A stretch of DNA of 63,922 nucleotides, counting the filler, from Diploschistes diacapsis (Eukaryota): NCBI GenBank assembly GCA_023645945.1. It is 10 parts of 10 records of this genome, joined end to end, with 100 filler letters (N's around TTAATTAATTAA, not from the genome) between each part and the next. Parts side by side here need not be neighbours in the genome. Positions count along the whole stretch, not along the records: positions 16,683 to 20,746 come from JALAIB010001787.1; 9 more parts are not named here. One strand, given 5' to 3'. The translations under genes and the position numbers were made by a program. Below, piece by piece: positions 4,077 to 60,771 of the stretch (position 1 is its first letter; the number at the start of each line of letters is the position of its first letter). The notes under the pieces are model-generated. The model was given only the letters and a program-made list of their open reading frames with translations, was not told the origin of the DNA and made no database searches.

Positions 4077-4176
4077 NNNNNNNNNNNNNNNNNNNNNNNN
4101 NNNNNNNNNNNNNNNNNNNNTTAATTAATTAANNNNNNNNNNNNNNNNNNNNNNNNNNNNNNNNNNNNNNNNNNNN
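4077..4176. other. Artificial contig linker (also at 8252-8351, 12418-12517, 16583-16682, 20747-20846, 24904-25003, 29057-29156, 55622-55721, 59773-59872)
   Basis: Identical 44 N + TTAATTAATTAA (stop codons in all six frames) + 44 N; nine of the ten contigs fall steadily in length from 4076 to 4050 nt. Confidence 0.99.
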
Positions 4177-7720: not shown

Positions 7721-8540
7721 AATCAAGGACAAGAAAGAAGGATCCGCAAAAGAAAGACCGGGATGCAACATTGAAAAACGGCCGCCCGGGGGTTCTGCTA
7801 CAAGCTCGGAGTCATGGATTCGGTCCAGTGGCTCTGTTCCGATCTGGCGAATGTATCCAGGCACCAGCACCAGTCCCACCCAGCCCGCATGATGCCATTG
7901 ACTCATATCTAGGCTTCCAGCAATATGAACCAAGCATCACTACAGCAGCAATCAAGAACTCTTATGCGTCTCAGAACCTTTACTCCTTGGGCGCTTGTGC
8001 CTTTCAACCGCCCCCACGCTAAACAAAGTTTTGCAACTACCCTGCAAACTCCGTTATCGGCAAAGGTTCTATCCCGAGAGCATTTCCTACAGGCAGGACA
8101 ATATTGTGATGCAGTCTACACGTACATGTCTGGAAGGTCTGATATCAGCATTAGGATATGTGAGCTACATGGGGCTATCTCATCAGGGGCCAACATGGTC
8201 AGAACGGCACGCCGTGGGAGGTGGTGGGATTGGAGTGGCACCGAACCGGGGNNNNNNNNNNNNNNNNNNNNNNNNNNNNNNNNNNNNNNNNNNNNTTAAT
8301 TAATTAANNNNNNNNNNNNNNNNNNNNNNNNNNNNNNNNNNNNNNNNNNNNATTTTATAATTATTATTTATTTTTTTACGATTATATTAAAATGTTTTTT
8401 ATTTCGATAAAATACGCTCGCTATATTAAGTCTAATTAAAAGAATTATGTTTCTATTACATAAAAGGTAATTAAACGGACCATTCTTTCGAAACGAGACG
8501 AGATCGAAAAAAATAAAAAACTTATCGACGAAAATGATAA

Positions 8541-8775
8541 TATAAACTCAAGGCGCGCTGTCTAGGGAGACTTCCCTTGCTGTAGTAGGTAGGTAGTCGC
8601 AGGTGATGTAGTAAGGGAATGTAGTGTGATCTCGTAGTCAACAGCATACCTAAATAAGACATTTATGAAATATAGGATGTATTTCTTGTCTAGAACTACC
8701 TAACAAGCCTCCTTAAATAAAGCTGCCCTATAAAGACCACCCCTACCAAATCTACGGCCTACTTTTATGTTTACA
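8541..8775 (-). mobile_element. 3' LTR (235 bp) of the Gypsy-type element
   Basis: On the minus strand the polypurine tract AAAGGGGGGG (8790-8781) is followed after 5 nt by TGTAAAC...GTTTATA (RIP form of GTTTACA). Confidence 0.8.
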
Positions 8776-9289
8776 TACGACCCCCCCTTTAATAATTCGC
8801 TATCTTATAGCGAACTCCATACAAGTCTTATTAACAAGAAATTTCTATCCCTCTATCTCTATACCCTAATATAGTCCTATACCTCTCCGATAACTAAAAT
8901 ATCTAAAAACTTATTATCCTTAACACTCTTTTCTCGACGTAAACGTGCTCCTGGACTTATCCTTCTATATTCCACTCTCCAAACACAACTAGATAGAAAG
9001 GCGGTACCTATCTAAAGATATCCTTATCTCCGATTATATTCATATCATCCGTAAATATTCCGTCCGATAAATATAATTAATAACACGTCTTACAACCTTC
9101 TTCCTCTTCCTTCACCTTCCTTCCTCTCGTCACGACCAACAAGAATTCAATTATAAATAAATATATAGAAAAACAAGCAAGCAAGCAAATCACATAAAAA
9201 AACAAATAAACAAATTAAACGAAAAAGCAAGAATACTATAAAACTAATAAATAAAATAAACAACCGCGTAAATAACAAATAGTTCCCTA

Positions 9290-12222
9290 TTATAGGCCCT
9301 TAAAACCTTATAATACTCATTCCGACTTCTAATTATATAACCTTTAACCAAAACGGTTCCATCTTTCCTCAAATTTTCTCTATATTCTTCCCTCTTTATT
9401 TACAATCTAAATATCTATAAACTCATCTTTAATATCTAATCCTTAATTCTATTCTATACTTATTCCTCTATAAAATCCTTTCCGTTTTTTTTCTTCTTAT
9501 CCTTTCTAGACTCTATTTCCTCTATATTTAAATCAAGGTTATTTACTTGATCTTCCTCCTCGTCCTCTTTTTCATTTAGGTCTAAATCCTCGTCCGGAAA
9601 AAATACTCGTCTTAAAATCTTTTAAAAATCGGATTGCGTCTATAATAAAATAACGAAAAAATTCTTCTTCTAAACATTAAAAGCGAAATACTCCCCTTAA
9701 CGCATCGCTAAATAATATTCTTCAAAACCCTTAAAAACCTTAGCCACCCATTTCCTAAAATAAACGTCCCTTATCTCTAAATTAAAAATCTATACCTATT
9801 CCTTTATTACCGCTGGATCAATCCAGCGACGTCGTTTCATTAGCGTATCCGAAATTATTCCTAACCTAATAATCTACGTCGCTCCAGCGAAGACGTAAAG
9901 GATCCCTTTATGTATATTATATAAACCGGAAGGCGAGGAAAATCCGAAAATTAAATCTTTATATACGGCCGAAAGCTACTCTTATATACTAAAAACAGCA
10001 ATATCAAGCTAAAAATAATCTTATTAAACTCCGACATACCAAGATAAGATAATTCTCTTTACGCGCTTAAACTTCTATACCTTATAAAATAACTTTAACC
10101 TAAAGATCCTAACTTCGCTTCTATTATAAGATTAAAATACGAACTTTATCTTGATATCTTTCTCCTTTTAAATAATCCATATCTTACTATTAACCGTATT
10201 GACTAAACCGTCTTTCAACACGATCTCTCCCGCCCTCTACTTACGTTATAATTCTTACCACCAGTCCTAAATTCTACGATATATTCCTAATAAAAGCTAC
10301 GTACAGTCGTCGTCCTATTCATAATCAATAAAAACAGATCCTTAAATAATATTGATTCCATATCCTTCCTTCACCAACCGTCGGATGTTACAGTCTATAT
10401 ATCGGAAATACGTCTAATCTCCAAGCTCTTAATCCTTGCAGTAATAAAAGTAAGAAACCAACCACTTATTATAATCAGGACGCAAAGCCACGTACAATAA
10501 ATAATATATAAGGCATTATCTCATTACCTACTACACTTCAGAATAAAACATGATCCGATTTCAGCCCAAGTTAGGCTATCCGCCACGCTCACGAAGATGC
10601 CATTTATACATAACGAATTCAGCCTCGATCATAATCATGAAATCCAACCCACTTAATATACCAGATTCGCTAGCTCGTCCGTTAAAAAATTAATCGAAAA
10701 TACCACCCACCATAATACTACCATCTCTATTCCAATCTTACTTAATCTACAAGCTTAATCCGGCTACGTTAAATAGACCTACCGAAGTAATATCATCCTT
10801 AAAATACTATAAGATCTCCTTATAGTCCAAAAAATCCATCTTTAATATTAAAATAAAATACTTATAATTACCTAAGTTGTCCGAAGATCGCGCCGATCGA
10901 CTATCCTTTTTAAACATTTAATACGTCTTATTACTAATTTTCAATTACCTTATCCTAAACTCATCCTTATAAATCCAGTACAGTTTTGTTATTAAAATAA
11001 TTCTATTTCCTTACCTATTCTTAAGCCCTATAGCTCCGTATATAACCCTTAAATACCGAAAACAAAAAAAACGCTCGCGATCTTTAGATACAAAACTTCT
11101 ATACTATCGCAGAACCTTTTTCTAAGCAAGATACCTTTAATTCAGGATAATATATAATTTCTTTTCTTACTTACAACCGCAGTTCTATATTCCTAAACTG
11201 GCGAAAACCATCCGCCTAACTTTCATAATAACTGATACAGACGTAACAGGTAAAAAAAAACTGCCGAAAACAATAGTTCTAAAGTTCTCCCGATCACAAA
11301 ACCCTGAAATCTCCTACTCAAGCTCGATAACCACGGGTTCAATTAACTCAACGCCTTCGCTAAATACCGAGGAATCTCTAACCGCTAACAGAAAGAACTA
11401 TTTATTAAGAATTACCGATCTACGCGCTCCATCTTCTTCTATAAGTAAATTAAGGTCGACCGAAATGATTAAATCCGGTACAATATTTAATCGAACACGC
11501 CGCAAATCTATACCAGAAGTCGCTAGCTTGTTTATTATAAAAATAAATTATTCCGTTATTATCATAATATCTTTACTTAACGGACCTAAGATATCTTTAA
11601 TATACTTAATCGCCTTCTATATATCCGAAGTTAGCAACACTCGAATCTTATATACCCCTATAATAATTCCTTCAAGGCGAGAGGTCATTATATTAGCCAA
11701 AAGTTTCTAAATTAATTCAACATATCCATTTATTAACGTAATAAAAACACTTATTATCTTTATATAAACCTCGGGAGATCCGTATATATTTTTAAAATAA
11801 ACAGATCTTACAAGCTACTCTCTCTATAATTTACTTATTCTTTCAATGGCGTTACCGGTGCGTAATAATTTTTATTTATAACTTCGTATAAATTCCTTTA
11901 CCGATTCTTATTCTTCCTTATATACGACTTCTAAAACACCCGTCGTAATATATAAACTCTCTTTTTCAATCTCTTTAACCAGTTATCCGAAATAATTTAC
12001 CGTTAAATAAACCGTTACCTCGATCTTAGTTCTTACTTCATAAATTAAAGAATATCTATTTCTTAAAGACTACTCCTTTACATAATTAAAAAAACTTTTG
12101 ATAATATTAAAGCTACTTCCGTTTACCATTACGATCGGGATTTGATAACTATTCGATTATATATGGTTTCTTAATAGCGCGAAAAGTTGAGGAATTAATA
12201 AAAAAAGTGTATTATCAGCCAT
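9290..12222 (-). pseudogene. RIP-mutated retrotransposon cargo ORF, PhyH-like 2OG-Fe(II) dioxygenase (copy 1; 3' end approximate)
   Basis: Collinear with 21532-24264; reads LLYVALRPDYNKWLVSYFYYCKD*ELGD*TYFRYIDCNIRRLVKEGYGINII*GSVFIDYE*DDDCT*LLLG, with stops being TAA/TAG as expected from CAA/CAG/TGG under RIP. Confidence 0.72.
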
Positions 12223-12517
12223 ACTGAATCTTTCTAAAGATGACTAAAAGGGCAGGTTAACAGATTATATAATTCGAAATTAAGTTTTTTAATAACCGAT
12301 TTATGTTCGTCGTTAAATATAATCCGTATCGTCAAAATCAATTAAGATTTAACGACGGGAGATATTACGTGCTATCTTATGATATCAAACAAAATCTTAA
12401 TGCATATTAATGTCAAANNNNNNNNNNNNNNNNNNNNNNNNNNNNNNNNNNNNNNNNNNNNTTAATTAATTAANNNNNNNNNNNNNNNNNNNNNNNNNNN
12501 NNNNNNNNNNNNNNNNN

Positions 12518-13316
12518 ATATAATATTTTAAAAATAATTATAGACGATAATACCCCGCCAATAACTAAAATATATTCGATCGCAATTACTCACTTTTGTT
12601 TTCTTTTAATAACTTTTTAATTCGAGCCTGTTCGACTCGAAACGAAAGCTTTAAAAAAAGAACTATTATTAATATTAAAACTTAACTCGTTTATATTATA
12701 GATATATTCGGGCGCGTATTGCCCTTTATTATATTAAATTATTATTATATCGAATCACCGTTATATAACCTCGTAATTTATCGTATTAAATTTATTCAAT
12801 TCGATCTATCTCGTCTAAATATTAATAATTTTAGAAAATCGTTTGCGAAATCGCGATACCTAATTTTTATCGATAGATTAAAGATTCGCGATTATAACTT
12901 TTAAATTCGAACCGAATTGAATTCTTTCGCGTTAAATCTTTTCGGCCATTTCCACCACCAACGTAAATGATGCAGGAAAGCCAGTTTATATAAAACGTAT
13001 AATCTATCGTACTAATATCTTTTCTTTAAGATTTAAAAGGATTTAATTTAATTCGTGATTATTAAAACGTGATTATACTTTAATAAATCGACGCATAATG
13101 ATTAAACGAGGAACTTTAAATACGCGGGCAGCTTCTCGAACGTTAATATATTATTAAAAATTTAAGGCCTATAAACAATCGTTGATATTAAATTCTATTA
13201 AAATCGAATTATTACGATACGAGGTAGTCATTATTAAAAAAATCGAAGAAAAAGATGAAAGTTGTAATGAGAGGTGGCCCATTTCTGGGGGTGGCCCGGT
13301 TCCCCGTCAAACACGT
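12518..13316 (-). mobile_element. 5' end of a Fot1/pogo (Tc1-mariner superfamily) DNA transposon, RIP-mutated
   Basis: TA|ACGTGTTTGACGGGGAACCGGGCCACCCCCAGAAATGGGCCACC terminal repeat; from ATG at 13231 a degenerate HTH region (NVREAARVFKVPR...GFPASFTLVVEMAEKI). Confidence 0.8.
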
Positions 13317-13318
13317 TA

Positions 13319-16300
13319 TCGATAATTACTCGCGAAAAACCTGGTCTATTCCTTATAAAACTCGGAAGGATGTTATTCGTATTCTATAATTCTGGAAAGT
13401 GAATACAAAGTTCTAAAGCGGTAAATAACTAAAAACGGTGCGTTTCGATAATATACTTAAACTAATCTTTATAATCGAGGATTGAGGAAGAAATTTAGGA
13501 GTTCAAATGGAATCGATAGTATTATACACGTTAAACCAAAATGGCATTACCGAAAAATTTATATAAATTACCGAGATAAATATCCGTGCCATGCTTAAAG
13601 GAACGAAATAAAGATACGCTTTCTAGAACGAAGTAGTATTGATTTAATGCCATATCCGAAATAAAACAATAATAAGATTTAAACTAAACGGTTTAATCGC
13701 GACGCCTACCGAGCATTAATTAAGCGAAAAGCCGTTAATAAATAATATCCGTATCTAAGAATCAAGATACTATAATTACGTAAATATAATTGCAATTTGT
13801 ACGAATCGAGGAGGATATCCGCTCGCTATGAGTGTCCGCTCGCTATGCATATACGTTATATTAATATCGATAAATAATATAAGATTTAAGTATTCGATAT
13901 TTAAAAGATCATTAAAACTAATTCAGTCAAGTTTAAAAAGAATAAGACGTTTATTTTTTAAAAATTAAGATTATTTAAAAGTTATAAAGAAAACGATAAC
14001 GTAATATTTATCCGAAAGCCACCGAGACGTTCAGCCAACGATCTAATACTTAATATTGAAAGTATTAACGACGGATCAATTACCCACGTTAACGACGGGT
14101 CAGTTACGCACGCCAAAGACGTATTAACGATAAAGATAAAAGTTTAGTTAAACCATACTAAACCTTCACTATTTGTTTCTACTAAAGATCATAGTATTTT
14201 GGAAGCCCCTGCTCCCGTTCCTTATGATTAACCTGAGCCAGATAATGATGGCCGACAATTAATGAAGAGGTTCTTGCGGGTTGAGGTTCTAAGAAGAAAG
14301 ACTGAACTTGAATTTATTGAATTAGATGCACCGAAGCCTATTGCGTTAATAACGGGTATTATATACGTTATTAATAACCCGATTACGTATATAGTCTTAA
14401 TTAACGCCACGTTAACAACGTCTAATATACAGGATTCTTAAATAATAAACGATATAAACGACGTTTTAATAATTATAATTATTTAAAATATTAAAAAGTT
14501 TTATAACACGAGTTCTATTATTAATAAACGATAGCGGGATGTCGAACATTTTTTATCAATTAAAATATTAAAAAGTTATATAACGCTTATAATTAATAAA
14601 TAGGAGATAACGAGCGACGTCGGTTCAAGATCGACGCGTATTAGTATCTTAAGAAATTATAAGGAAGCCGTGAATGATCCGATCTTCGGATAAGAATAGG
14701 AAGTAATAATAAAGAAAAAAATCGATTTTTTATTATTAAATTAAATCTACATTGAATTACTTGAACTATTTAAATCTATTAATATTATAAGTTTAAAATG
14801 GGTTTTCGATATTAAGTATAATCTTAATAATAATATTAAAAGGTTTAAAATTAGATTAGTCGCAAGAGGTTTCTCGTAAAGATAAAATATCGATTTCGAC
14901 GAGACATTTGTTCTTATTATTCGAGCCGATTCGCTACGAATTCTATTAACGGTTATAACAATTAAAGATCTAGAATGTTATCAAATGGACGTCAATAATG
15001 CGTTTATCGAAATATTATTAACGTATTAGATCTACATAACCGCACTAGATAGATATAGCGTTCTAAAGGGCACCGTATTTAAAATTAATAAAAGCTTATA
15101 TAGGCTAAAGTAAGCGGCCAAAGATTGGTATAAAAAATACGGCAGTATAATCCTGAATCTAAGATTCGTCCGATCTAATGCTAACCTATACGTCTTTATT
15201 TTGCGAGATCGAAAGCTACTGGTTAGCCTTTATATAAACGATATTATTATAGCAGCACCGGACCTACATGATATATGCTGATTTAAAAGAACACTGGCTG
15301 AACGCTACAAGATCAAGGACCTAAAGGAGATAAAAAAGCTCTTAGGAATGAAAATTCAGCGACAGCGCAGTTCAGGTTTAATAGATTCAGCTAAACTGAC
15401 CCTAGATCAAAAGATATACGTCGAGAAGATACTCTAGCGTTTCAAGATGATAACGGATACATATAAAAGCTAAAAGATACCGCTTAATAAATACGACGAT
15501 ATTAAATTAAATAAAGAATCCTCGGAAACAATTAATAAAACGTAATATCAAGAAATTATTAATAATATCATACATTTAACGGTTTATACGAGACCAGACA
15601 TCGTATTTACTATTAAAAAGTTAAGCCAGTACATAACTAACCCATACATCCACTATTTATATGTTTTAAAGGAACTACTCCGCTACATTCGGAAGACAAA
15701 GGATACTAAAATTTAATTCAGTTTTAAACCTAAACTTTCGAAATTACGGAAATACTTCGATATAGATTATAAAAGAGATAAGTCAGATCGAAAGTTTACG
15801 TATGAACATATCTTTCAATTATACGGTGGATCAATATCTTAAATAAGCAAGAAACAGAATTCAGTTTTAACGTTAATTATAGAAACTAAATATATTGATT
15901 TATCTCATACCGCTAAACAAGCCTTATAATACTTATAATTTTAAAAAATATTAATTATTTTGATTTTATAAGAATATTTCTATATACTATTAATTTACTC
16001 GGTAATAATATTGGTTCTCTAAATTTAATAAAGCACGTAAGGATTAACGATCGTTTAAAACATATCGACATTATTTATCATCACGTACGAAATCTGGTTA
16101 AGTAGGGACGTATCAAGATATCTTATATTTTTATCGATAAAATGGTTGCTGATAGATTTACGAAACCACTAAATTACTCGAAGCACGACGACTTTATTAA
16201 GAAACTCTGTCTAATCTAAAAGATATTTAATTAAACTATGTAATCATACCGGACGATTCCGCCTGTGGGGAAATATTGAGTAGATAGATAAAAGATATGG

Positions 16301-16488
16301 CTAAAAGTTTAATTAAGTTCTAGAAGGAGGTTTAATTCAGTTGAACCTCCTGGAATCCCAACTAGACCGGTTTAGGAATAGTGTAGGTAATAGGGCTTAA
16401 CGTATCCCATAAGAATAAAAGTCTGCAAAATAGGATAACCTCCTAGATAGACCTCTAGACTTCAATATATCCATTACGTTGCCAAACA
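13319..16488 (+). mobile_element. Ty1/Copia LTR retrotransposon (integrase-RT-RNase H plus 3' LTR 16274-16488), RIP-inactivated
   Basis: Copia domain order, with degenerate motifs NQNGI(A)E, KWVFDIKY, FK(A)RLVARGFS, QMDVNNAF, SLY(G)LK(Q)A, LY(VD)DI, KHIDIIYHHVR, MVAD(G)FTKPL; purine tract GGGGAAA before an LTR ending GCCAAACA. Confidence 0.92.
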
Positions 16489-16989
16489 GAATCGTCGAAA
16501 CATTTTTTTAATTTTTTATCGATAATCCTCGAATATCCTGGTAGAATAGATTAAAATATCGTTTAAATATAAAATAACGTACNNNNNNNNNNNNNNNNNN
16601 NNNNNNNNNNNNNNNNNNNNNNNNNNTTAATTAATTAANNNNNNNNNNNNNNNNNNNNNNNNNNNNNNNNNNNNNNNNNNNNTTGGGGCTAGTGAAGGAA
16701 ACATGGTCTAGGAAGACGAGCTTGTGTGCTACTAGTTCTGTCAGCCCCGCCCCAAAAGCCCCACTTTTTCACAACTGTGGGTTGACAATGTTTGATTCCT
16801 ATTTTGAGGCTCGACTGCAAGCCGCCCCATTGTTGCTGGAGATTTTGGGGGCTTGCAAGCAAACATGGTATAGAAAGGTTGGCATGGGTCCATCTAGGGT
16901 TATTAGCCCAGCCCCAAAAGCCCCGGTTCCACAACAGTCTGGGTGTAGGAATGTTGATCCCGATCTTGAATGCAGCCCCAGTGAATATG

Positions 16990-17920
16990 ATGCTTGATGA
17001 TCGGGATATGTTGGCTTGCGGACTCTTCTGAGTGAGGTATGTAGCAGGCATATTGCAATAATAGTCTGTACCAAATGTGAGATCAAGTTGAACAATGTAC
17101 TCTTGCCAGTACTTGCAGCTGGACCTGGTAGAAGTTGGTGCGAATGCGCCCTGACAGGCATTACCTGATTTGACCCAGCAGGTACTCTCTCTCATCATCC
17201 TACGGCTTGTTTTTTGACTCACAAATTCCCGGAGCTCTTCTATCCTCTCAGGATCGGCTTCTGGGAAGTGGTAAGGGACACACAGCAGCTCAACATGTCT
17301 TGTGGTCAGCCATTCGAAAGCTTCTGGTCAGTTAGTCAAACACTCCATCCCTGAAGGCCATTAGGTCCAAGTGTATGTCCAAATCTTTTGAGAAACTGTC
17401 ACAGTGCATGTGCTTTGTGATGGAGAGTTGGTATAGGCTAGCATTATTGTCCTGACACTTCCAAACTGTGCTTGTGAATGGGGTAGAAGCTGACGTCCTT
17501 GGTGTTGTTACCCTTACAGCCTGTCCAGGAAACAGAGAGCTAACACCCTCTGCAGAATCAAGATGCTGGCCGCCACCTGATGTGGTCATCCACAATATCT
17601 CCACTGAGGTGAAAAGCTGATTGTGCAACGCCAGGTTGTCCATTATCAGCCAGTGCTTGATGCTACCAAAACCTACCCCTATGCCCTTGTCCCTGAAAGA
17701 CAGCTTTGACAGCTTCTTGTCGACCTCATTGGCATTACATTGTTCACTCATCAACTCATCAACTTCTGGGAAAACTGATGAGTTTGCGACCTTCTTCTTT
17801 GTAGCTGTTTGACTTCCGTATGTTTTGGGATGCCACAGTCTACCTTTAGCCAGTCTTCACAGCCTTTGGGCCTGCCCAAGCTGACAACTTTTCCGGTCTC
17901 AACAGAATGCATCCATGAAG
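16990..17920 (-). pseudogene. Decayed D5-like primase-helicase (PriCT-2 + D5_N + start of SF3 helicase), viral/plasmid type
   Basis: Across frameshifts: EDWLKV...HQFSQ..SEQCNANEVDKK...GFGSIKHW..MDN (PriCT-2-like), FSKDLDIHLDLMAFRDGVFD (D5_N-like), REYLLGQI..CLSG, GPAASTGKSTLFNLI (Walker A), TFGTDYYCNMPATYLTQK. Confidence 0.72.
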
Positions 17921-18506
17921 CAACATCATGTCAGTCCTTAAAGGATAACAGAAAACGTAATCACACAAAAATAATTTTGAAACTGGGGCTTTTGGGGCGG
18001 GGCTGACAGCACAGTATAGCTTCAAGCTAGCCTTGCTAGAAAGTGTTTGACTTATCAGCCCCATTGTTAAGGAGGCAAATTGGGGCTGGCCTGACAACAC
18101 TAGATAGCCCCCAGCTAGCCTTGCTGGAAGGTACTGACTTGTCAACCCTGGTTTTGTCCAAGTGGAGGTAAATTGTCGCTGTTTAACACACCCCTGTCAC
18201 AATTGGTTGAATCCGAGCCAGCTTCTGCTGTGTGCAGGATCAACTTGATATGAGCTCACCTGAGACTATGCACTCCGAGGTAACAGGGACTTTGAGCCAG
18301 CTTGATGACCCGCTGGCAAGCGTCCGCTGAGGGCAGTGGCGACAGTAGTTGCTAAGAAGATGTCTGGCGGCCGCAATGGTGAGGGTATTGGGGGTTGATG
18401 TGGCAGTAGTAAATTGCTTGTGTGCTTGCTATATCCAACCTTGCCTTGTATGGTTCTTAGTGAATTGGATAAGTAAGAGCCCAGTTGCCCTGCACTCAAA
18501 CAGGTT

Positions 18507-18648
18507 AGAGCATTTGGAAGAGTGAAACATATAGGGTTGTAGGCCATTGTTGGCACACAGCTGGCCCTGGTGTGGGGTGAGAGCATTTGGAAGAGTGAAA
18601 CGTATGGGGTTGTAGGCCTTTGTTGGCGCACAGCTGGGCCTGGTGGGG
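18507..18648. repeat. Tandem duplication of about 72 bp
   Basis: AGAGCATTTGGAAGAGTGAAAC(A/G)TAT(A/G)GGGTTGTAGGCC(A/T)TTGTTGGC(A/G)CACAGCTGG occurs twice in succession. Confidence 0.85.
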
Positions 18649-20217
18649 CCTTTAATTGAGGATCCCTAGTTGTGGGCCCTAGCTTCTGGGCATCCAACTG
18701 GCGCTGAGACAGGGCTTCTTTGACAAGCAACCGCTGCGGTTCTTTATCAAGAGCCAACTCACGATGTATGCAAAGCCCATTTTGACATGCGCTTACCTAA
18801 GATCACACTCGAAGGTAGTGGAGACTTACTGTCAAGCAGCCTGTTGACAATGTTGACAGTCGTTTGTCCCAGACCGTGGCGCTCTTGGTTGTGGGGAAGA
18901 TGATGGGCAGCCTCATGGTTGGAATTTTGTTGTGGAGTTGAAGATCGCTGCAAGGTGAATGGCAAACTGAGTTGCTTTTGCTTGCTAAATGTAGCCAGTC
19001 CCTTATGTGGCTCTCACTGATCGGAATAGTACCTTGGCTGTCCTGCACAAAATCAAGTCAGAGAGTGGAAAGTGGGGCTTTTGGGGCGGGTTTGGGAGCC
19101 TGAGATGGCTCAAGCTAGCCTTGCTAGAAACTGCATGACTTACCAGCCCGGTTACTGGGGAGGCAAAGTGGGGCTAGGAGCGCGCTTCAGGGGCAACCAT
19201 CAGGATTTTACCGGAGTCTGAGCCAACTTCTGTTGCGTGCAGAACAAAGTCTTAGTATGCACTCACTTGACCTTACACTCTAAAGGTAGTAGAGGTCTAG
19301 GACCCAAGAGCCAAATGATGATTTCCACAGATGTTTGAAACCGACAGTGGGCTCCAGGCTCTAGCAAAGAAGCGATTATGGTTGTGGAGCTCTGTTGTTC
19401 GCTTAAGCCAGTTGATGAAGTGCTGAACCGTTTGTGTGGGTATTCGATATAGCCAACACCTTATGTGGTTCTGCTTGACCACCGTATTAGTAATCCTGGT
19501 GGCCCAGTACAAGATGAGAGTTTGAGAATGTGAAGCTTTGGGCTAGGCTGACAGCGCAAGATAGCCGTCAGCTAGAGCCAATAGGACTTGTTCACTTGAC
19601 AGGGGAGCAAGAGTGGGGCTTTGGCTGTAGACCAACCGATTTCTGGAATCTGAGTCAAGTTCCGGGTGCAGAGCCAAAGAAATGTGTTGAAGCCGGCTGT
19701 GGCTTAGTGTATATCCGTACACAAAGCCTGAAAATCGCCTCACCTTCGATATAGGCTACAAGGCGCTGCAGTGATCCTGTCCAGCTCTAGCAATCTCGCC
19801 CAGGTCTACAACAAGAACTTTTGAGTGCATCCTGAAGGACCTACCCGGGGAAGTCGTTGGAGAGAGCTGTCAGAAGAGTTATTGAAGGTGATGTGCGTGT
19901 CTAATAGGCTGTCGTGCCAGGGTGTTACGGTGTGCCTTGAGAGCGTTTGTGGCTTCTTGGGATGGTGACCCTTGCACCAGGTTATGTACTGGGTTGACTT
20001 GAAACTGGATGCTGATGTGAACATGTGCAACCTCTTAGATTCTCCATCATTACATGCATATGTTTGAAGGCCTCTTGACTTCAGAGCTCCGTTACGGTGA
20101 AAAGAAGCAAATCTGGTAAAGTCTGTCAACACACCATTACCGGTCTTCATCATGAAAGATTGTGTTGTCTCATTTGAGTCAAGATGCAATGAAGCAAAGC
20201 TGGTGCAAAGTTAAAGG

Positions 20218-20360
20218 TTCCATCAATGCATGCTAGAACTTCCATCAATGCATGCTAGAACTTCCATCAACACATGATGGAAGTTCCATCAACATCATGT
20301 AACGCTTGTGCAAAGGTAGAGTTTCCAACAAAACATGATGGAATTTCCATCATTACATGT
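20218..20360. repeat. 22-bp tandem repeats with internal palindromes
   Basis: TTCCATCAATGCATGCTAGAAC twice, then variants containing GATGGAAGTTCCATC and GATGGAATTTCCATC. Confidence 0.8.
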
Positions 20361-20505
20361 CTACATCATGGACAGTTTGATTGTTTGACAAAGACATAGA
20401 AGCATTTAGATCGGCAAGCTCTGCTGGCACTCCACAAGAGTTCAAGCAGTTCAGATATTCATGGTCAACATTCTTAACGAATCTCCAGTAGCGCATCCCG
20501 CCAAG

Positions 20506-20745
20506 TCAGTAGTACTTCTGTGTATTTTGATTCCACTTGATGTTGTATTTTTCCAGAATGGACCGTTTCACATTTCTGCTGTCGTTTGCCCTCTTGATAG
20601 CTTTGACACGATTGATTGCGTAATCATGCTCCTTGTGGTACTTTGCACTGAATTTTGCTTTTTGAACTTTATGTCTGAGGTACCATATACGATTTGCTTG
20701 CTTTTTGCCCTGTTTTGTCTTTCGATCCGGCTTAGTGATCACCAT
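20506..20745 (-). CDS. Small basic hypothetical protein (may be 5'-truncated at the contig end)
   Basis: 79-aa Lys/Arg-rich intact ORF without introns; family not recognised. Confidence 0.4.
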   Translation of the reverse strand: MVITKPDRKTKQGKKQANRIWYLRHKVQKAKFSAKYHKEHDYAINRVKAIKRANDSRNVKRSILEKYNIKWNQNTQKYY

Positions 20746-20846
20746 GNNNNNNNNNNNNNNNNNNNNNNNNNNNNNNNNNNNNNNNNNNNNTTAATTAATT
20801 AANNNNNNNNNNNNNNNNNNNNNNNNNNNNNNNNNNNNNNNNNNNN

Positions 20847-21200
20847 GTATTATTTTATAATAGTAGATATTAGGAGGATTATTTTATATTTCGAAAATTG
20901 AATTTTTGGTAACTCGGTTTTTACCGAATAACCTATTCGGATCATAAGAAGTTAGTATATAAGTTTATTAAACTAAATGGAACGGACCTTAATAGAACCT
21001 TTGTAGGCAGAAGGTTAAAGGTCTTTATTACTGATTTTAGAAAAGAAATGATAGTGCCGGATTCTAAAACTACGGGTTAAAAGGATAGGGATAGATCTAT
21101 AGAAGAAAAAAATATCGATAAGGATTTAGATGATAAAGTTCCTTTTAATCTTTTAAGAAAGTTTATACCTGCGGGGAGGGATTTCGCGGTAATGATTTAG
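20847..21200 (+). mobile_element. 3' end of Ty3/Gypsy pol (integrase C-terminal region), RIP-mutated
   Basis: Reads VLFYNSRY*EDYFIFRKLNFW*LGFYRI...VYKFIKLNGTDLNRTFVGRRLKVF, which de-RIPs to the fungal Gypsy tail VLLHD...KLxFxWLGPYRI...YxLxELDGT.L.GTFAG.RLK.F; TAG at 21198-21200. Confidence 0.8.
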
Positions 21201-21531
21201 GAGATGGGTCCTTTTATTGTTATAAGGGAGGGAAGGGTTTAGTTGAATTCTTAATAAACCCTTTATGAAATTAAAAAAGAAGATTAGAAAATTTTTTTTT
21301 GTAACATTCTTTCCATTCGGCGTTTAAGATTCTGTGATTTTGTGTACGTTTTATCCTGCTAGAGTTACTGTTTGATATGCGTTGAAAGCTTATGGTATTT
21401 TGAGCTTTGCTTGCTTTACCTTCTTATTTATTTCTTGTTGTTTTGTCTTCCTGTTTGCCTTCTGAGATCTTTATTTTAGGACCCTGCTAGTTGCGTTTAG
21501 AGATCTTATTGAACTATAAATTATCGTTATA

Positions 21532-24264
21532 ATGACCGAAACTACATCTTTCGTACCAATATCGAGTTCCTTCTCTCCCCTGGTTCTATTAAGAAGTTAT
21601 GTTTAAATTAAAAGCTATTAAATATTAATTGTATTAATAGATGGAAGTAGTTTTAATACGATAAAGAATTTTATTAATTATATAAGAAAATAATCGTTAA
21701 AGGATAGATATCTTTTAATTTGCGAAGTTAAAATTAAGATTGAGGTAATAGTCTATCTTACGGCCGATTACTTAGAATAACTCGTTGAGAAGGTTAAAAA
21801 AGAGAGTTTATATATTACAATAGGGGTATCGGAAGTTAATTATGAAGAAAAATAGGAATCTATAAAGGAACTTATAAGAAACTATAGATAAAAGTTATTA
21901 TAAGTTAGTAACGTTATTGATAGAGTTAGTAGATTGTGGGGGAAGTAGTTTGTATTATCGGCGTATCCGGGTGAAGTGTACGATTCTTTAGAAATTTATG
22001 TTAAGTTAATGAATATTTTGGTCACGATGGTAAATAGGAACGTGAAATTAACGTAAAAACTTTTAGTTAATATAATAATCGTTCGCCTCGAAAGAATTAA
22101 GATCGAAATATATAAGATTCGAATATTATTAGTTTCAGATGTGTAAAAGATAACTAAATATAAAAGAAATATTTTAGGATTTTTAAATAAAGGTATTATG
22201 TTAATTTTAAAACAAGTTATATTTATGATAAATAAGCTAGCGTATATTAAGATAGACTTACGGCGTGTTGGATTAATAATTATATCAGATTCCGTCGTTC
22301 CGATCGACTTCGCCTTAATAATAGAAATAAAAAGGAATCAAGTATTAGTTATAAACAGGTAGCTTATTTTGTTAGAAATTAGAAATTCATCCGCGATTAA
22401 TGAAAGCGTCGGATTCGACCTTATGAATATCGATATTAAATAGGGGATCCTAGGGTCTTATGATTAGGACGGTCTCGCGTTCGGTTTTGGTAACCTTCCG
22501 TTTCTTATCGTGTTTATAGGATTTATTGTAATGAAAGTAAGGAAAATGACCTTCGTAAGGATGCACGGTTATGGATATAAATAGGAAAAGAAGTTATATG
22601 TTATCTTAAGTATTAAGAATTTAGGATAAAAGGAGGTTTTGTAATAATATAGAAATTTTATTTTTAAAGAACGTGAACGCTTTTTCTACTTTTCGTACTT
22701 GAGGGCTATATGCGGGGTTATAGGGCTTAAGAATAGGTAAAGGAATAGAATTATTTTAATAATAAAGTTATATTTGGTTTATAAAGATGAATCGAAGATC
22801 GGGGTATTAAAGACTGGAAACCGAATTTATTAGTTATTTCGAAAGGATAATAAGCTAACACGATCTTTAAACGACCTCGATAATTATAAGTATTTCATTC
22901 TAATATTAAAAGTGGATTTTTCCGATTACGATAAGATTATATGGTACTTTAAGGGTGATCTTATTTCGTTAGGCATTCTTAATACAATTAAATTAAAGTT
23001 ATAGATAAAGTAGGATTGGAACAGAGATAATAGTATTATGGTAAATAATATCTTCGATTAGCTTTTCAATGGACGAGCTAACGAATCTAACGTATTAGGT
23101 AGCTTGAACTTCATAATTATAATAGATGTAGAATTCTCTATGTATCAGTAATACTTCCGTAAGCGTAATAAATAACCCAATTTGGATTAGAATCGTGCAA
23201 TGTTCCATTTTAGGGTGCAATAAGTTATAAAACAGTGTCTTATATATTACTTATTATATGTGGCATTACGACCTAATTATAATAAATAATTGGTTTCATA
23301 CCTCTATTACTGCAAAAATCAGGAACCGGAAGATCAAACCTATTTTCGATATATAAACTACAACATCCAAAGACTGGTGGAGAAAAGGTAAGGAATGAAC
23401 ATTATTTAAAAATCTATCTCTATTAACGATAAATAAGAAGACGATTATATATAACTCCTGTTTAGCATACATCGAAAGATTAAAAAATAATAAAAAATAT
23501 TATAACACCGGTAGTAAATTAGAAAGATAGTTTTGAAAGATGGACCTATCTATACCGTTAATAACAAGATATGGACGGCATAGGATGAAAAAGATACGTA
23601 AATAGTATTTATATTTTAATCATATAATAAGAAAGACGTCAAGATATTTAGACCTGAGTTATCTCACGGGACGCAGAAGTTTAAGCGCGTAAAGAGGACC
23701 GTTTTATCTTGGTATATGGGAGTTTAGAAAGACTATTCGATGCTTAATATTGCTGTTTCTGGTACGTAGGAATAGCTTTCTATTACGTATAGAGATTTAA
23801 TTTCTGATTTTTCTTCGCCATCGGGATTATATAATATGTATAAAGGGATCCTCTACGCCTTTGTTAGTGTTATACCGATTACTAGATTGGGAATAATCTC
23901 GGATGCATTGGTGGAACGACGTCAGTAAACTGACCCGGCTGTAATGAAAAAATAGATATAAATTTTTCGTCCTGAAATCAAAAATGTTTATTTTAAGGAA
24001 TAAATGGTTAAGGCCTCTAGGGATTTTAAAGATTATTATATAACAATGCGCTAAAAAGAATATACCGCGTTTCACGATCAAGGTAAAAGCTTCTTCTCAG
24101 TTCTTATAAAAACGCAATTCGATTACTAAGCGGTATTGAGGAAAGCGCTTTTTCCGAACGAGGAGGAAGAGGAGGAAGAGGAGGTGGAAGAAGAGGAAGA
24201 AGAAGTGGAAGAGGAGGAAGAGGAGAAGGAGGGGGAAGGAGAGGAAGAAGAAGAGAAGGAATAG
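21532..24264 (+). pseudogene. RIP-mutated retrotransposon cargo ORF, PhyH-like 2OG-Fe(II) dioxygenase with Glu-rich tail (copy 2)
   Basis: One frame from ATG 21532 without frameshift, interrupted by RIP-type TAA/TAG stops; inferred HxD at 23350-23358, intact distal His codon at 23665-23667 (EL(P)HG), KRTVL(P)WY strand, poly-Glu at 24160-24261. Confidence 0.75.
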
Positions 24265-25003
24265 GTAGCGTGAGGGGAAAAATAAATATTATAAAACCTT
24301 AAGGACCTATAATTATGATAAGATAGAATAAGATAAAGTCTATTTATTTATTTATATGGCCGTTCGGCTGTTTGCTGGCTGGTTAGTTTGTTAATTTTAT
24401 AATAGACTTGCTTTTCTACTTATTTATTTAATACTTATTTACATATTTGCTTGTTTATTTTTTTATGTGATTGATTTTTTTGTTTTGTGTTTTCTTGCTT
24501 GCTTTATGTTTATGTATTGACCTGCCTGTCTGCCTCTTGCTTGCTTGCTTGCTGCCGCTTGTCTGAGAGGTGTGATCGGAGAAGAAATAAGAGAGAAAGG
24601 AGGGCGGCGGACGTGCTGTCTAATGTAATTGTCTAGAAGAATACCTATGAATAAGATAGATATAACGGAAGTTAAGAATGGTTTTGGATAGTTATCGCTT
24701 TATTATCTAGCTAATAAAGCGGAGTATGATATAAATACGGTAGAAGTTAAAAATATTTTTAAATAATTACCGCTTTTTTGTCCTCGTGATTCGAGAGAAT
24801 AAAATGCAGAAAATTAGATTTAATAACGCTGTTACGTTTAAGAACACTGTCACGTCGAAAAGGAAGTATTAAAGAAGATAAATTTCTAAATATTACCGTT
24901 GCTNNNNNNNNNNNNNNNNNNNNNNNNNNNNNNNNNNNNNNNNNNNNTTAATTAATTAANNNNNNNNNNNNNNNNNNNNNNNNNNNNNNNNNNNNNNNNN
25001 NNN

Positions 25004-29056: not shown

Positions 29057-29909
29057 NNNNNNNNNNNNNNNNNNNNNNNNNNNNNNNNNNNNNNNNNNNN
29101 TTAATTAATTAANNNNNNNNNNNNNNNNNNNNNNNNNNNNNNNNNNNNNNNNNNNNGGACGAACGAGGGGGTTGGATGGCTGGTGGGAAGGGAAGAGGGA
29201 AAGAGGAAGGAGGCAAGAGGGCATGGGGCGAAGCGGCGGATGGAGAGGTTCGAGCATCCTTGAGCTTGAATCTTCTGCACAGGTCTCTCTCTACTACTGT
29301 ATGTAAAGGGGGAAGCTATACACTACGTGTTGCAGGTGCGGATGTATAACAAAGCGCACGCCGATGCCGCTGTATAGTAGGTGCACGCATGAAGCAGCAG
29401 AGTACGCTCGCGCATGGTCTCTGCTGTGCCTACTTGCCATGCAGACCACTAGGTTTGCAGGAAGAATGTAGAATGTACAATATACAATGTTTAGCGCACC
29501 AGTTGGAAAGACAACTGAGTCGATAGCCGCCAAGGGCCAACTTTGTTGTACCTTTCTTCTAAATGCACGCAGTATATTTCGGTCATCTCCCCTTCTCTTC
29601 CCTCTGCTCGCGGCAATGTGCGCCCCGGGATCACTCCCTATCGAATCCACATACTCGCTCACAAAACTAGATCATAGTAACAGCAAGCGACGCTGACGCT
29701 TAGAGCATACCCTTCTCGCTTCAGTCCACCTCCAAAACCGAACAGCCCATGCCCCAAAACAAAGAAAACCAAAGGACCCTCGTTTTCCCAGCCACAAGAA
29801 CATCCCAGCCTGACGCCAAAATCCCGCTTCCCTCGCTTCCCTCGCGAACCCAGCAAGAACTTACAAAGGAGAAAACCAGCCATTCGTAAAAAGTGATGAG
29901 TAATCGGTA

Positions 29910-54435: not shown

Positions 54436-56288
54436 TATCTTTGTAAAACCGGCTTCATACAAGCATTGATCCCCGTAATGACGCTTTAAATACTGCCATA
54501 CTAGCATTCTTTAGTGGTGGCCAAGGTGGTGTTACTACCCCCACCTACTAACTACCCTGCATTGCGAGCCTGCTAACGCAAGTCGAAAACCTTGCACCAT
54601 CTTAAGTAGCATCATGCTGGCAACGGAACCGTCAACGGGAGGGCCACTTCTTGGTCTTTATCGTCTTGGCCTGCTTGGCCCCCTGCCGTGGCGTTTCCGG
54701 CCCCTCCCGCCTCTCCTCTCCTTCCGTACAACTACAATCAACTTCCGAGTATACAGAGTAACGGAGCACCCATACGTACGTAATATACAAACCAGCCCAA
54801 AACTTGGTCATCAGAATCATTCGAGCAGAGTACGGGGATAGCTATATATCCAACGCACCGGGACTGATACCGGTATCCGGCGAATACACCCACCCGAATC
54901 ACCTCTATATTACGTAGATACGTATGCACTTGGCTCCAAACACAACACATGAAACCTGCCCGACACAAACGCAAGGGGCTGCTAAAGAGCCTCAGATAAC
55001 TCCGCTTGATTTTCTCTTCTGTGCACAAGTATTTTGATTCACCCAGCGTAGCAGCTCAGGAAAGGACGCACAAGAACAAGGCACGCCCCCAGCCAACCCA
55101 CTCCCACATACATATACCATGTAACGATGCAGTAACGCCCGGGCCCCCCCTCCATCTTACATTTCAGGCTAACTTACCTACTAACAAATTCATTACACAT
55201 TACATACGTTGGTTATAATAATACAAACCCGGCACGAGAACCCTGTAGATACATACGCCCCAGAAAGCACCCGCTTTCTCTGCTCGCCCTTTCCTGCACT
55301 CGCTCGCTCATGCGCATGTGGCTCCTCGGCTTTTTTTTTCTTTTTCTTTTCCCCGCTCAAAGGTTCTTAAGGGTTGGGTACAGCTGGATGCAAAAGGGAT
55401 ATTGAGCGCGCATATGAAGGGGGGGATAAACAAGTTGGGTATTATGATGTGTGTATATATATATATATGTATGTATAAAGAGAGCGAGGGCGAGCGGAAG
55501 CAAAAAAACACAACCTTGCTGGTGCGAATAACCCGGGATTTGATATGGAGGTTAGTAGGGATTGGGAGATTGGGAGCTCCTCGCGAGAGCTTCCCATGTA
55601 ACCCAAAACCGTGCCATGCCANNNNNNNNNNNNNNNNNNNNNNNNNNNNNNNNNNNNNNNNNNNNTTAATTAATTAANNNNNNNNNNNNNNNNNNNNNNN
55701 NNNNNNNNNNNNNNNNNNNNNGCTGGTTATGGGTGCTGGGAGGGAGAAGAGTGGCGTGACCTGGTGAGGGAAGTAGGGGGTGGGACTGTTCAGAGTACAG
55801 GATGGAGGGTATTATCCTCCGCGACTTGAATTGTGTCTGCCGATGCTGAGTGGGCGCGTTTGCGCTGCGCCTTTACTAGTGGCAGCTCATCGGTAGATTG
55901 TTGCTTATTACAAATCCCAGGAATATACACCCAGCCTGCAGTGTATCGGTTATTTATTCACAACCTTGAGAGAAGTAAATATGAGGGGTAAGTAAGTGTT
56001 GAGTAAGATTGTTTGGCTTGTGCTATTATACTCCAATGCTTCGTTACTGTTCTAACCCCACCGCAGATCATTAAGAAATCCCTCGTGCCCCTCCAAGTCT
56101 AGTCCATCACCGCCGCAGTAGCTCATAAACCCTATCTCACCGTCCTTGGAAGCTGGCAGTATTGCAGGTGCTTATATATCTCTGCTTTATCCGGTTTGCT
56201 TCGCTGCGGAATTTACAAATCCCTCAACAATCTCTGATCTCTCTCGTCATCAAATTCTTACGCCCCGCTGCATACACTCAATACCAAG

Positions 56289-59675: not shown

Positions 59676-60771
59676 TAGAGGGTTGTTTCTTAGGACTTAC
59701 AGCGCTGAGTTATTACATAAGCTGACTACTTATTCCCCCTGCAGATAAAGGCCAGTCTGTAAAAGGAAAGGCNNNNNNNNNNNNNNNNNNNNNNNNNNNN
59801 NNNNNNNNNNNNNNNNTTAATTAATTAANNNNNNNNNNNNNNNNNNNNNNNNNNNNNNNNNNNNNNNNNNNNGTATATGGGTATATGGGTATAGGGGTGC
59901 AGGCGTGCAGGCGTGCAGGCGTGTATCCCTATTCTCTCTCTCTCCAGAGGTGCAAAGCGGATCGATGTGGGATGTGGGTGGGCCGGGTGAGAAGCAATAA
60001 GGATGCGCCACAACAGGCCAACAAGAATAGATAATAAATAATGGCAGCCAGCCAGCCAGCCAGCTGGTTCTTCCCCGGTCAAAACAAGCTACTTAAAGCT
60101 CCTACCAGCGCAAGGCTAGCAACGCCGCCAAGCAACTAAATCCTGCCTGTACCAGCAAGCCACTACTCCACACACATGTCCCCGTTCTCCGAAGCGAAAC
60201 GGACTTCAGCTTTTCAAGTGACATGGATGGATGATGCATCTTCCGTCGATGCGGCAACTCTGACGTTCCCCTTTGGAGTCGCCCATGTGTGCCGCTATCT
60301 CTAGATCAAGCTAGCATCTTACGCTTCGCCAGAGAATCTATATCTCTGCTATCGCCACCCCCACTAGATCCAAACCTTATCACCACTAGTCGCTTTCTAC
60401 CTGAATTAGGTGAACTCCCTCAGAATCTCCCTCCCTTCCCACTTTCTTCTTCCCAGCACACTCACTCATTGCGGTGGATCATGCGGCTGTCACTCATCTT
60501 CTCTTCTCTTCACTTCTCTTCTCCATCCTGCCCATAACTGTTCCTTTCAAAGTCGCCTTGAAACTAGACTTGGCATTCTGTATCTTTATTTTCCTGTGTA
60601 CAAGTTCCTTAGCCCCCCGTTTGAAATTGCCGGCTACCTATAGCTGCTTGCACTTTGCGCTCCTAGCAAATATAAGCTACCGCTACGCCAGACAAGCCCG
60701 ATTATTAGCCTTGGATTCTGCATTTTGTTCATCAATCGAAAGGACAGCTCTTGAAGAGCAACGTTTTACCC

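Follow-up and report, generated by a model that had tools for sequence, protein, structure and literature searches.

The window analysed here, a stretch of 63922 bases from the assembly of the lichen fungus Diploschistes diacapsis (GCA_023645945.1), carries on its minus strand the remains of a viral-type primase-helicase gene. Judged by sequence comparison, these remains are a truncated remnant of a D5/C962R-type primase-helicase and not a member gene of that family. In our view the remnant is likely to be one copy, dead and with parts of its interior deleted, of a repeated element from the nuclear genome of Trebouxia, the green-algal photobiont of many lichens, and to have been brought into the ascomycete assembly as photobiont DNA. 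The window copy makes no functional protein and has no function now, and it is probably at most a non-autonomous derivative of the element. The relic is ordinary; it is the family behind it that merits a proper description.

The homology of the remnant extends over 16947-17873 (minus strand), corresponding to codons ~285-668 of the 849-codon intact relative at locus L082, as determined by tblastn, alignment to the coding sequence and a profile. A preliminary description of this DNA had located it at 16990-17920; the location stands, with the span slightly shifted. In a six-frame reading of the minus strand, the motifs EDWLKV (17841-17858), GFGSIKHWL (17647-17673), LMAFRDGVFD (17335-17364), EYLLGQIR (17164-17187), GPAASTGKST (17096-17125) and FGTDYYCNMPATYLTQK (17025-17075) were found, with the pieces distributed over three frames. 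The first peptides are, in order, ETGKVV..EDWLKV, a 174-codon piece ending in LMAFRDGVFD, and PEAFEW..SQKTSR, which is followed by DDEREYLLGQIR, LLPGPAASTGKSTLFNLISH and LTFGTDYYCNMPATYLTQK. When a profile hidden Markov model (HMM) built from 8 full-length relatives was run on all 2462 six-frame pieces of the window, the four best matches were collinear pieces of the remnant, and the next ones elsewhere had E values of 4.4 and 9.3. The order of PriCT-2-like, D5_N-like and Walker A motifs on the minus strand, first noticed by eye, is therefore confirmed by both the motifs and the four profile matches. In tblastn with the full-length relatives, the remnant was the sole region of the window to match at E <0.001 (e.g. 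P0030 residues 361-630, E 5.6e-35).

All four pieces lie on the minus strand. The first (17754-17930; profile 302-337, E 0.045) is open and has the PriCT-2-like start ETGKVV..EDWLKV; it showed 42% identity to residues 314-351 of P0023 in tblastn, and the matching residues 188-260 of the related protein P0008 score Pfam PriCT_2. Only the second half of PriCT-2 remains in the window; Pfam gave no match to the piece itself, and its profile match (E 0.045) is collinear with that of the next piece. The second, the 174-codon open piece (17335-17856; profile 339-447 and 506-534, E 9e-26), carries the end of PriCT-2 and most of D5_N, and its last 139 codons, counted from a Met, form an open reading frame (ORF) common to at least 15 near-identical copies. 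D5_N is therefore present in the remnant, though with an internal deletion of 57 codons. The third piece (16692-17327; profile 551-652, E 3.6e-10) is followed by the Walker A piece (16802-17191; profile 597-623, E 0.011). The Walker A motif or P-loop itself, GPAASTGKST at 17096-17125, is in a frame that differs from both flanking pieces (family consensus AGPLAGNGKST). No trace of the archaeo-eukaryotic primase (AEP) domain was found, as there was no profile match to positions 1-301 and no tblastn match to residues 1-313 at E <0.001. In the superfamily 3 (SF3) helicase core, Walker A is kept and everything beyond ~codon 668 of 849 has been deleted, the deletion stopping exactly at the first copy of a 3' repeat motif described below.

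The damage to the gene is extensive. Compared with the L082 coding sequence, the remnant has 64.8% nucleotide identity over 1039 aligned bases, with indels of +1, -4, +11, -171, -1, +2, +2, -10, -4, +3, +3 and -2. At least 8 of the indels are frameshifting, each frame of 16947-17873 contains 7 to 19 stops, and the continuous open reading frame has been lost. It was proposed previously that the gene was broken by frameshifts and stops and truncated soon after the P-loop, which agrees with these counts and with the loss of everything after ~codon 668. The 171-nt deletion is in frame and removes 57 codons within D5_N, leaving a junction at 17404-17427 (minus strand; deletion at 17424) that reads LSITKHMH. 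The same junction is read across by P0001 (93% identical) and P0005 (79%), and is shared among copies 79-95% identical. As copies only 79% identical share the junction, the deletion predates the spread of the subfamily. Some of the small indels are specific to the window copy, since contigs from the sequencing runs X2, X3 and X15 differ from it at 17134-17138, 17746 and 17776. It was also observed that P0008 leaves the family frame just past Walker A and ends LLHTSLKR..RPT.P, the same off-frame reading as a window frame (LLHTSLRRVRKPTYP, 17003-17155, minus strand); this could reflect either one inherited frameshift or a gene caller that read across the break.

The separate broken pieces of the remnant gave no D5-related match in Pfam or PHROGs, and the family assignment therefore rests on relatives that carry the Pfam domains. 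The suggested check with HMMs thus finds the gene with the profile of its relatives (E 9e-26) and not with Pfam on the broken pieces. A blastn search of the remnant region against a phage collection gave no match. With phmmer, the 174-aa piece matched 22 proteins among 1.84 billion representatives. P0016 and P0019 were treated as false matches, being repetitive proteins with unrelated Pfam domains, and most of the others were ORF fragments of 54-144 aa with 46-97% identity. P0008 (535 aa, 46% identity) carries AEP_C962R (1.5e-17), D5_N (1.2e-14) and PriCT_2 (5e-6) according to Pfam, and P0013 carries D5_N (1.4e-5). The full-length relatives of P0008 are 844-900 aa long and contain AEP_C962R, PriCT_2, D5_N and DUF5906; in the intact ORF of locus L080, AEP_C962R scores 3.2e-44. 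The family profile matched Protein Data Bank (PDB) chains named 'Putative primase C962R' over residues 44-844 (E 1.2e-67), and matched poxvirus D5/monkeypox E5 in the helicase part only (E ~1e-22). C962R is a protein of African swine fever virus. These matches support the original attribution to the D5-family primase-helicases of nucleocytoviruses.

By scanning metagenome contigs, fifteen Trebouxia-type loci (L080-L094) were identified with 55-95% identity to P0023, and 61 other loci were kept with 24-33% identity to it. Relatives are encoded by 305 of the 382 stretches that matched the pattern in a viral collection; the 79 loci that were kept all have 24-33% identity, most of them on contigs named as giant-virus metagenome-assembled genomes (GVMAG, with the meaning of the label taken from an excerpt of PMC13524828). 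The giant-virus metagenome relatives align over nearly the full length at 24-33% identity. Four of the Trebouxia-type loci (L080, L082, L085 and L086) hold intact, intronless ORFs of 849-899 codons. The ratio of nonsynonymous to synonymous substitution rates (dN/dS) was 0.16-0.34 over the six pairs of these ORFs; such purifying selection indicates that the protein was kept functional while the subfamilies diverged. There are several diverged subfamilies (40-95% identity), with many copies within one genome, and the GC content of the Trebouxia-type units is 0.46-0.49, which is host-like.

For a phylogeny, 112 of 155 loci were kept, dropping those in which the longest plus-strand ORF was below 780 aa, above 1100 aa or contained X, and 12 library proteins were added. 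P0023 was matched at E 1e-10 by 123 of these 124 proteins, and removal of duplicates left 109 rows. In the resulting fast tree, 11 Trebouxia-type proteins form one clade with a local support of 100 and a stem of 1.14 substitutions/site. The tree has no known root and many long branches, and its giant-virus rows carry no taxonomy; therefore the phylogeny, which had been suggested as a check on origin, yields a Trebouxia-type clade and no donor lineage is drawn from it.

To understand whose DNA this is, the make-up of the window has to be considered. Nine identical linkers (N44-TTAATTAATTAA-N44) divide it into ten contigs, nine of 4050-4076 bp in falling size order and one of 26465 bp. The window is a chain of unplaced contigs whose neighbours are physically unlinked, and consequently any comparison across contigs, or any finding that spans them, has no physical basis. 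The remnant's contig (16683-20746, minus strand, 4064 bp, GC 0.478) is nearly all one decayed copy of the element, in the order 3' array, gene remnant, 5' arrays and left-edge block, and its main blocks all match the coding sequence or the flanks of loci L080-L094. The contigs on either side of it in the chain have GC contents of 0.30 and 0.31 and are unrelated. The assembly is an ascomycete's, as was previously assumed, because the Sec39 protein of the 26465-bp contig has its nearest clusters in Ascomycota (score 0.98) and the 496-aa ORF of the last contig (62201-63691) resembles a fungal tetratricopeptide repeat (TPR) corepressor. OPT, EFR3 and PHD genes are also present on the 26465-bp contig, and DOT1 on another contig of the window. 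The suggestion that all unplaced contigs of normal GC are algal was dropped, as ORF 62201-63691 points to a fungal TPR protein.

The relatives of the remnant point to the alga. A search with P0008 returned 35 relatives, and all nine of the named ones were from Trebouxia spp., on contigs of up to 4.3 Mb. The P0001 cluster has 36 members; the 15 listed are all 92-95% identical to the 139-aa ORF of the window, and two of these are named, Trebouxia sp. C0004 and Trebouxia sp. C0010. The 31-mers of the contig were present in 20 of the 24 listed public runs, from 12 studies. The two best runs (0.88 and 0.76 of sampled words) are labelled as lichen metagenome, and nine differently coded organisms hold 0.37-0.54. 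One contig from run X1 spans 16817-17940 with a single difference. No fungal flank was found on the 4064-bp contig, which is element sequence from end to end.

A further indication came from dinucleotide composition. Repeat-induced point mutation (RIP) leaves a high TpA/ApT and a low (CpA+TpG)/(ApC+GpT) ratio. On the remnant's contig these values are 0.75 and 1.49, respectively, with no RIP-like bias, whereas they are 1.06-1.14 and 0.60-0.70 in the window's three AT-rich contigs, among them the two next to it in the chain. The contig thus lacks this mark of a resident repeat in a RIP-active ascomycete genome, despite belonging to a multi-copy family. Because the named relatives are all Trebouxia, the contig is present in lichen metagenomes, no fungal flank is seen and RIP bias is absent, the contig most likely represents DNA of the photobiont within the assembly of a lichen fungus, and most likely lies outside the fungal genome, a strong inference from sequence. 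Of the idea of an integrated, decaying element in the ascomycete, the decaying, mobile-element-like repeat is thus retained, while its residence in the fungus is not, given the same Trebouxia relatives, missing flank and lack of RIP bias.

What the element consists of was determined from the Trebouxia-type loci together with the window. Copies of a 25-nt GC-rich motif stand on both sides of the gene, inverted relative to each other, in the 15 loci and in the window: upstream, 11 copies are reverse and 1 forward; downstream, 15 are forward and 0 reverse; and 1 copy lies inside a gene match. This motif was found 0 times in 1.82 Mb of giant-virus-like loci and 0 times in the rest of the window. 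In eight loci the first downstream copy is 183-194 nt past the stop codon, and the upstream copies are in tandem units of ~450 nt.

The window relic has kept these repeats and lost the gene. On the minus strand, its 3' repeat array (16683-16997) holds two copies of the 25-nt motif, with cores at 16749-16762 and 16911-16924, and has 72-82% nucleotide identity to the DNA just downstream of intact ORFs (L081-L086, L091 and L092). In the 5' tandem-repeat region (17964-19700, minus strand; cores at 17985-17998 and 19074-19087) the motif runs opposite to its direction in the 3' array. This region is 64-78% identical in nucleotides to the repeat units of ~450 nt that precede the intact ORF of L085. 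The arms at 17980-18012 and 16735-16767 are 94% complementary. Further out lies a distal 5' region (20212-20647, minus strand) with blocks shared with L080, L090 and L093. On the same strand, it comprises 22-nt tandem repeats (20212-20352), a block common to L090 and L093 (20256-20461) and a third stretch, which matches the L080 5' region at its left edge (20533-20647).

Beyond the 3' array, a block of ~5 kb is common to L084, L085 and L088 at 80-90% identity, and its start is also present in L081 (~290 nt) and L092 (~700 nt). In L092 a longer stretch of the block is inverted upstream of the gene, and in L080 the tail of the block lies upstream. The block holds three genes. The first, of ~240 aa (ORF240), is also found downstream of the diverged copies L082 and L091 at 38-39% identity. 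Its AlphaFold2 (AF2) model has a predicted local distance difference test (pLDDT) score of 62.5, being mostly helical and disordered, with the C-terminal 90 residues alone confident; against 48161 chains in VIA-align, the best Z was 6.2, to unrelated helical chains, and there was no match to a jelly-roll.

The second gene encodes a protein of ~325 aa which, on the basis of its model, is a tyrosine recombinase. The AF2 pLDDT was 81.7, and the top Foldseek matches were XerA, Cre, lambda Int and Tn1549 Int at E 1e-5 to 1e-3 (~1e-5 for the top ones, with query-normalised template modelling (TM) scores of 0.36-0.56; Cre 0.49-0.56, Xer chains 0.32-0.38). Across 15 sequences, R158, K208, H278, H303 and Y311 do not vary and R277 hardly does. 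The His that usually opens the HxxR is not conserved. Pfam gave no match to the recombinase, and when its threshold was relaxed to E 5 the four genes of the downstream block had only chance-level matches. A 52%-identical fragment of the recombinase is found downstream of the D5 gene in L080. The recombinase family (L084:6454-7527, plus strand) is multi-copy and has 76 library relatives, of which the 12 named ones are 11 from Trebouxia and 1 from Coccomyxa subellipsoidea C-169.

The third gene, of 119 aa, encodes a divergent H2B-like histone fold, with E values of 5e-8 to 1e-5 against H2B chains of the PDB. It is on the minus strand at L088:6843-7199, L084:8641-8997 and L080:266-619, the three copies being 88-91% identical. 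This gene stands at the right end of the block, and a truncated copy is present in L092. A mobile element carrying a histone gene would be unusual, and the alternative is a captured host exon.

The association of these genes is also seen in the locus tags of Trebouxia sp. C0010 and C0004, in which D5, ORF240 and recombinase genes are side by side. ABBQ32_000743 and 000744 (D5) adjoin 000745 (the 240-aa gene), the 240-aa gene is beside the recombinase at 010456/010457, 012378/012379 and ACH3X1_003557/003558, and 003715 is two tags away from a D5 fragment of the window's kind, 003717. Past position 7606 of L088 and 6767 of L092 the homology gives way to unrelated DNA, and the right end of the unit is placed there. 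Measured from the 5' arrays to this end, the unit is ~10 kb and has no ORF above 360 aa except D5. L080 has a head-to-tail arrangement: after the tail of one block comes the 5' region of a D5 copy belonging to a different subfamily. Among 73 flanking ORFs (at least 110 aa, 7 loci, flanks of at most 10 kb), no capsid, polymerase, packaging or integrase family was detected by Pfam at E 0.001, and the sole match was one weak zinc ribbon. The partners anticipated for a viral gene of this type, namely capsid, packaging ATPase and PolB, were not found beside the intact copies in these scans, and a tyrosine recombinase was found instead.

From this organisation, a mechanism can be proposed in which the recombinase would integrate and excise a unit of roughly 10 kb, while its replication would be started by the primase-helicase at the motif arrays on either side. 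The window copy would have multiplied after the death of its gene, either in trans or by duplication, as its main defects are common to many near-identical copies, and would then have decayed further.

Several points count against the origin and mechanism proposed here. The contig has no flanking host DNA, and hence no junction that proves either host; organisms are coded for 13 of the 20 runs that carry the stretch; the closest DNA compared (L090 and L093) is 83% identical over ~400 nt only; and not all of the unplaced contigs are algal. The lack of Pfam and PHROGs matches to the broken pieces belongs here as well. The window itself has no recombinase, ORF240 or H2B-like gene, and these are linked with D5 through flanks of at most 10 kb in 8 loci and the adjacency of locus tags. 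The recombinase family outnumbers the primase-helicase in copies, and it may be mobile by itself too. As the absence of a capsid rests on Pfam and one fold search, divergent capsid genes could escape. Replication at the arrays and copying in trans are, for their part, conjectures from sequence.

A more far-reaching possibility, which we put forward only tentatively, is that the Trebouxia elements make up a class not yet described, of integrative elements of ~10 kb that lack a capsid and replicate themselves, combining a giant-virus-type AEP primase/SF3 helicase, inverted iteron-like arrays on either side of it as the origin, a tyrosine recombinase and an H2B-like histone, and that are still active and spawn trans-replicated derivatives resembling miniature inverted-repeat transposable elements (MITEs). 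They are read as active because of the purifying selection, the several subfamilies and the head-to-tail insertions. Such elements may be a eukaryotic counterpart of P4-type satellites, possibly as exploiters of a giant virus in the lichen alga. In bacteria and archaea, P4-like satellites and integrative plasmids are similar on paper, as capsid-less integrative replicons with a D5_N primase-helicase and a tyrosine integrase, but they belong to another domain of life, the window pieces have no PHROGs match and the likeness lies in shared Pfam domains. With MITE-like derivatives, the window copy has in common that it keeps its inverted arrays, that its coding part is gutted and that its defects are common to near-identical copies; in contrast, no transposase is involved, and copying in trans would have to be assumed. 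Crypton-type DNA transposons may also be comparable, being eukaryotic mobile elements whose sole recognisable recombination enzyme is a tyrosine recombinase, here one with no Pfam match. Cryptons are not known to carry a primase-helicase.

The family could instead be an integrated Polinton-like virus or virophage, with its capsid module beyond the flanks examined or too divergent to be recognised; we regard this as unlikely. Capsid genes of Polinton-like viruses often escape Pfam, and the inverted repeats and multi-copy integration in algae would fit. The pairing of a primase-helicase with a tyrosine recombinase is known from such viruses (excerpts of PMC4642659 and PMC11296320), which also resemble the Trebouxia unit in being small and integrative, with inverted repeats and expansion in host genomes (excerpts of PMC4642659, PMC10120064 and PMC12220804). 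However, the right end of the unit is set by the loss of homology in L088 (7606) and L092 (6767), which leaves only ~10 kb without capsid, penton, packaging ATPase or protease detected and with no ORF above 360 aa other than D5. The lone gene of unassigned fold is mostly helical or disordered and has no jelly-roll match. In addition, the primase-helicase is of the giant-virus D5/C962R type, and its best viral relatives are on large giant-virus contigs, not small ones.

Less probable still is that the family represents part of a giant endogenous virus in the alga (a Nucleocytoviricota insert) that has been duplicated repeatedly, with a scrap of it in the window. The full D5/C962R core-gene architecture would agree with this, as intact relatives have the same order of AEP_C962R, PriCT_2, D5_N and DUF5906/SF3 as the Nucleocytoviricota proteins, and so would the 305 of 382 viral-collection stretches with relatives and the giant-virus names of most of the 79 loci. 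H2B-like genes, moreover, occur in some giant viruses. Against this, the Trebouxia-type proteins form one long-stem clade (1.14) far from the 98 other rows of the tree, and no viral core family was found in the 73 flanking ORFs (7 loci, Pfam E 0.001, flanks of at most 10 kb) or otherwise in view near the Trebouxia copies. The many chromosomal copies per genome, in several subfamilies diverged to 40-95% identity, the tyrosine recombinase, and the fixed cis repeats around the gene with differing flanks past the right end indicate a short mobile unit; the window copy itself lacks the primase and most of the helicase. Giant-virus inserts are known in a related photobiont, Asterochloris glomerata, in which a remnant of a nucleocytoplasmic large DNA virus (NCLDV) of ~540 kb carries a giant-virus core-gene homologue in the nuclear genome (excerpts of PMC6652019 and PMC5294986). 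That insert is one large, low-GC, gene-dense region with several core genes, whereas the Trebouxia unit is short, repeated, has a single core gene and is host-like in GC (0.46-0.49).

A similarly small chance is given to a relic integrated in the ascomycete genome, either as an endogenous viral or plasmid-like element, as first thought, or by horizontal transfer from photobiont to fungus. The contig was deposited in a fungal assembly in which other contigs of the window have ascomycete-type genes, and physical contact within the lichen would allow transfer. But no fungal sequence flanks this unplaced contig, and the protein is 92-95% identical to copies on Mb-size Trebouxia contigs. The contig also occurs in runs of 12 studies, among them lichen metagenomes and runs of nine differently coded organisms, which is what a shared photobiont would show, and it lacks the RIP-like bias expected of a multi-copy family when nearby fungal repeats are strongly biased. 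Finally, chance resemblance of a motif string in non-coding repeat DNA, for which only the failure of Pfam and PHROGs on the separate pieces could be cited, is refuted by the collinear profile matches (E 9e-26), the tblastn match (E 5.6e-35) and the 64.8% nucleotide identity over 1039 bases.

A dead copy of a Trebouxia element, present as photobiont DNA, is thus the explanation that we prefer, and it has practical consequences. What looked like a viral relic in an ascomycete is here most likely photobiont DNA, and a claim, built on this contig, that a lichen fungus has endogenous giant-virus genes would be wrong. The relic led to a multi-copy, full-length D5/C962R primase-helicase in Trebouxia nuclear genomes that is under purifying selection, with fixed inverted arrays, with recombinase and H2B-like neighbours and with no capsid gene in view. 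In the literature searched on elements of Trebouxia and green algae, no description of this element was found; in PMC11523091, on six Trebouxia genomes, the repeats are mostly given as 'unclassified repeats' and long interspersed nuclear elements (LINEs), and its supplements may list such repeats. If confirmed, this would be a virus-derived replicon behaving like a transposon in the most common lichen alga, and would bear on how giant-virus replication genes become domesticated or selfish. In addition, the family provides a convenient marker of photobiont DNA, and a candidate backbone for vectors in an alga without genetic tools.

Some smaller features of the element were also noted. A 73-nt unit (family D3, 90% identity) is duplicated in tandem at 18503-18648, and this duplication is polymorphic, as contigs from runs X1 and X2 have a single copy (18506 is joined to 18580, skipping 73). 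Fragments of the window's subfamily are present at L093:385-1187 and L090:513-1113, without the 5' arrays and the PriCT-2 part, and have 83-85% nucleotide identity to 17095-17485 and 20256-20461 of the window. The fragment directly abuts the 5' region of another, fuller copy, which suggests a nested or head-to-tail insertion.

In the rest of the window, the linkers are at 4077-4176, 8252-8351, 12418-12517, 16583-16682, 20747-20846, 24904-25003, 29057-29156, 55622-55721 and 59773-59872; those at 16583-16682 and 20747-20846 separate the remnant's contig from the preceding and the next AT-rich contigs, both unrelated to it. Rfam at gathering thresholds gave no match over the whole window. The AT-rich contigs at 8352-12417, 12518-16582 and 20847-24903 have GC contents of 0.30-0.32 and a strong RIP-like dinucleotide bias, and in 12518-16582 the ORF fragments resemble, by eye, a copia-type reverse transcriptase (e.g. 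VARGFS and YQMDVNNAF).

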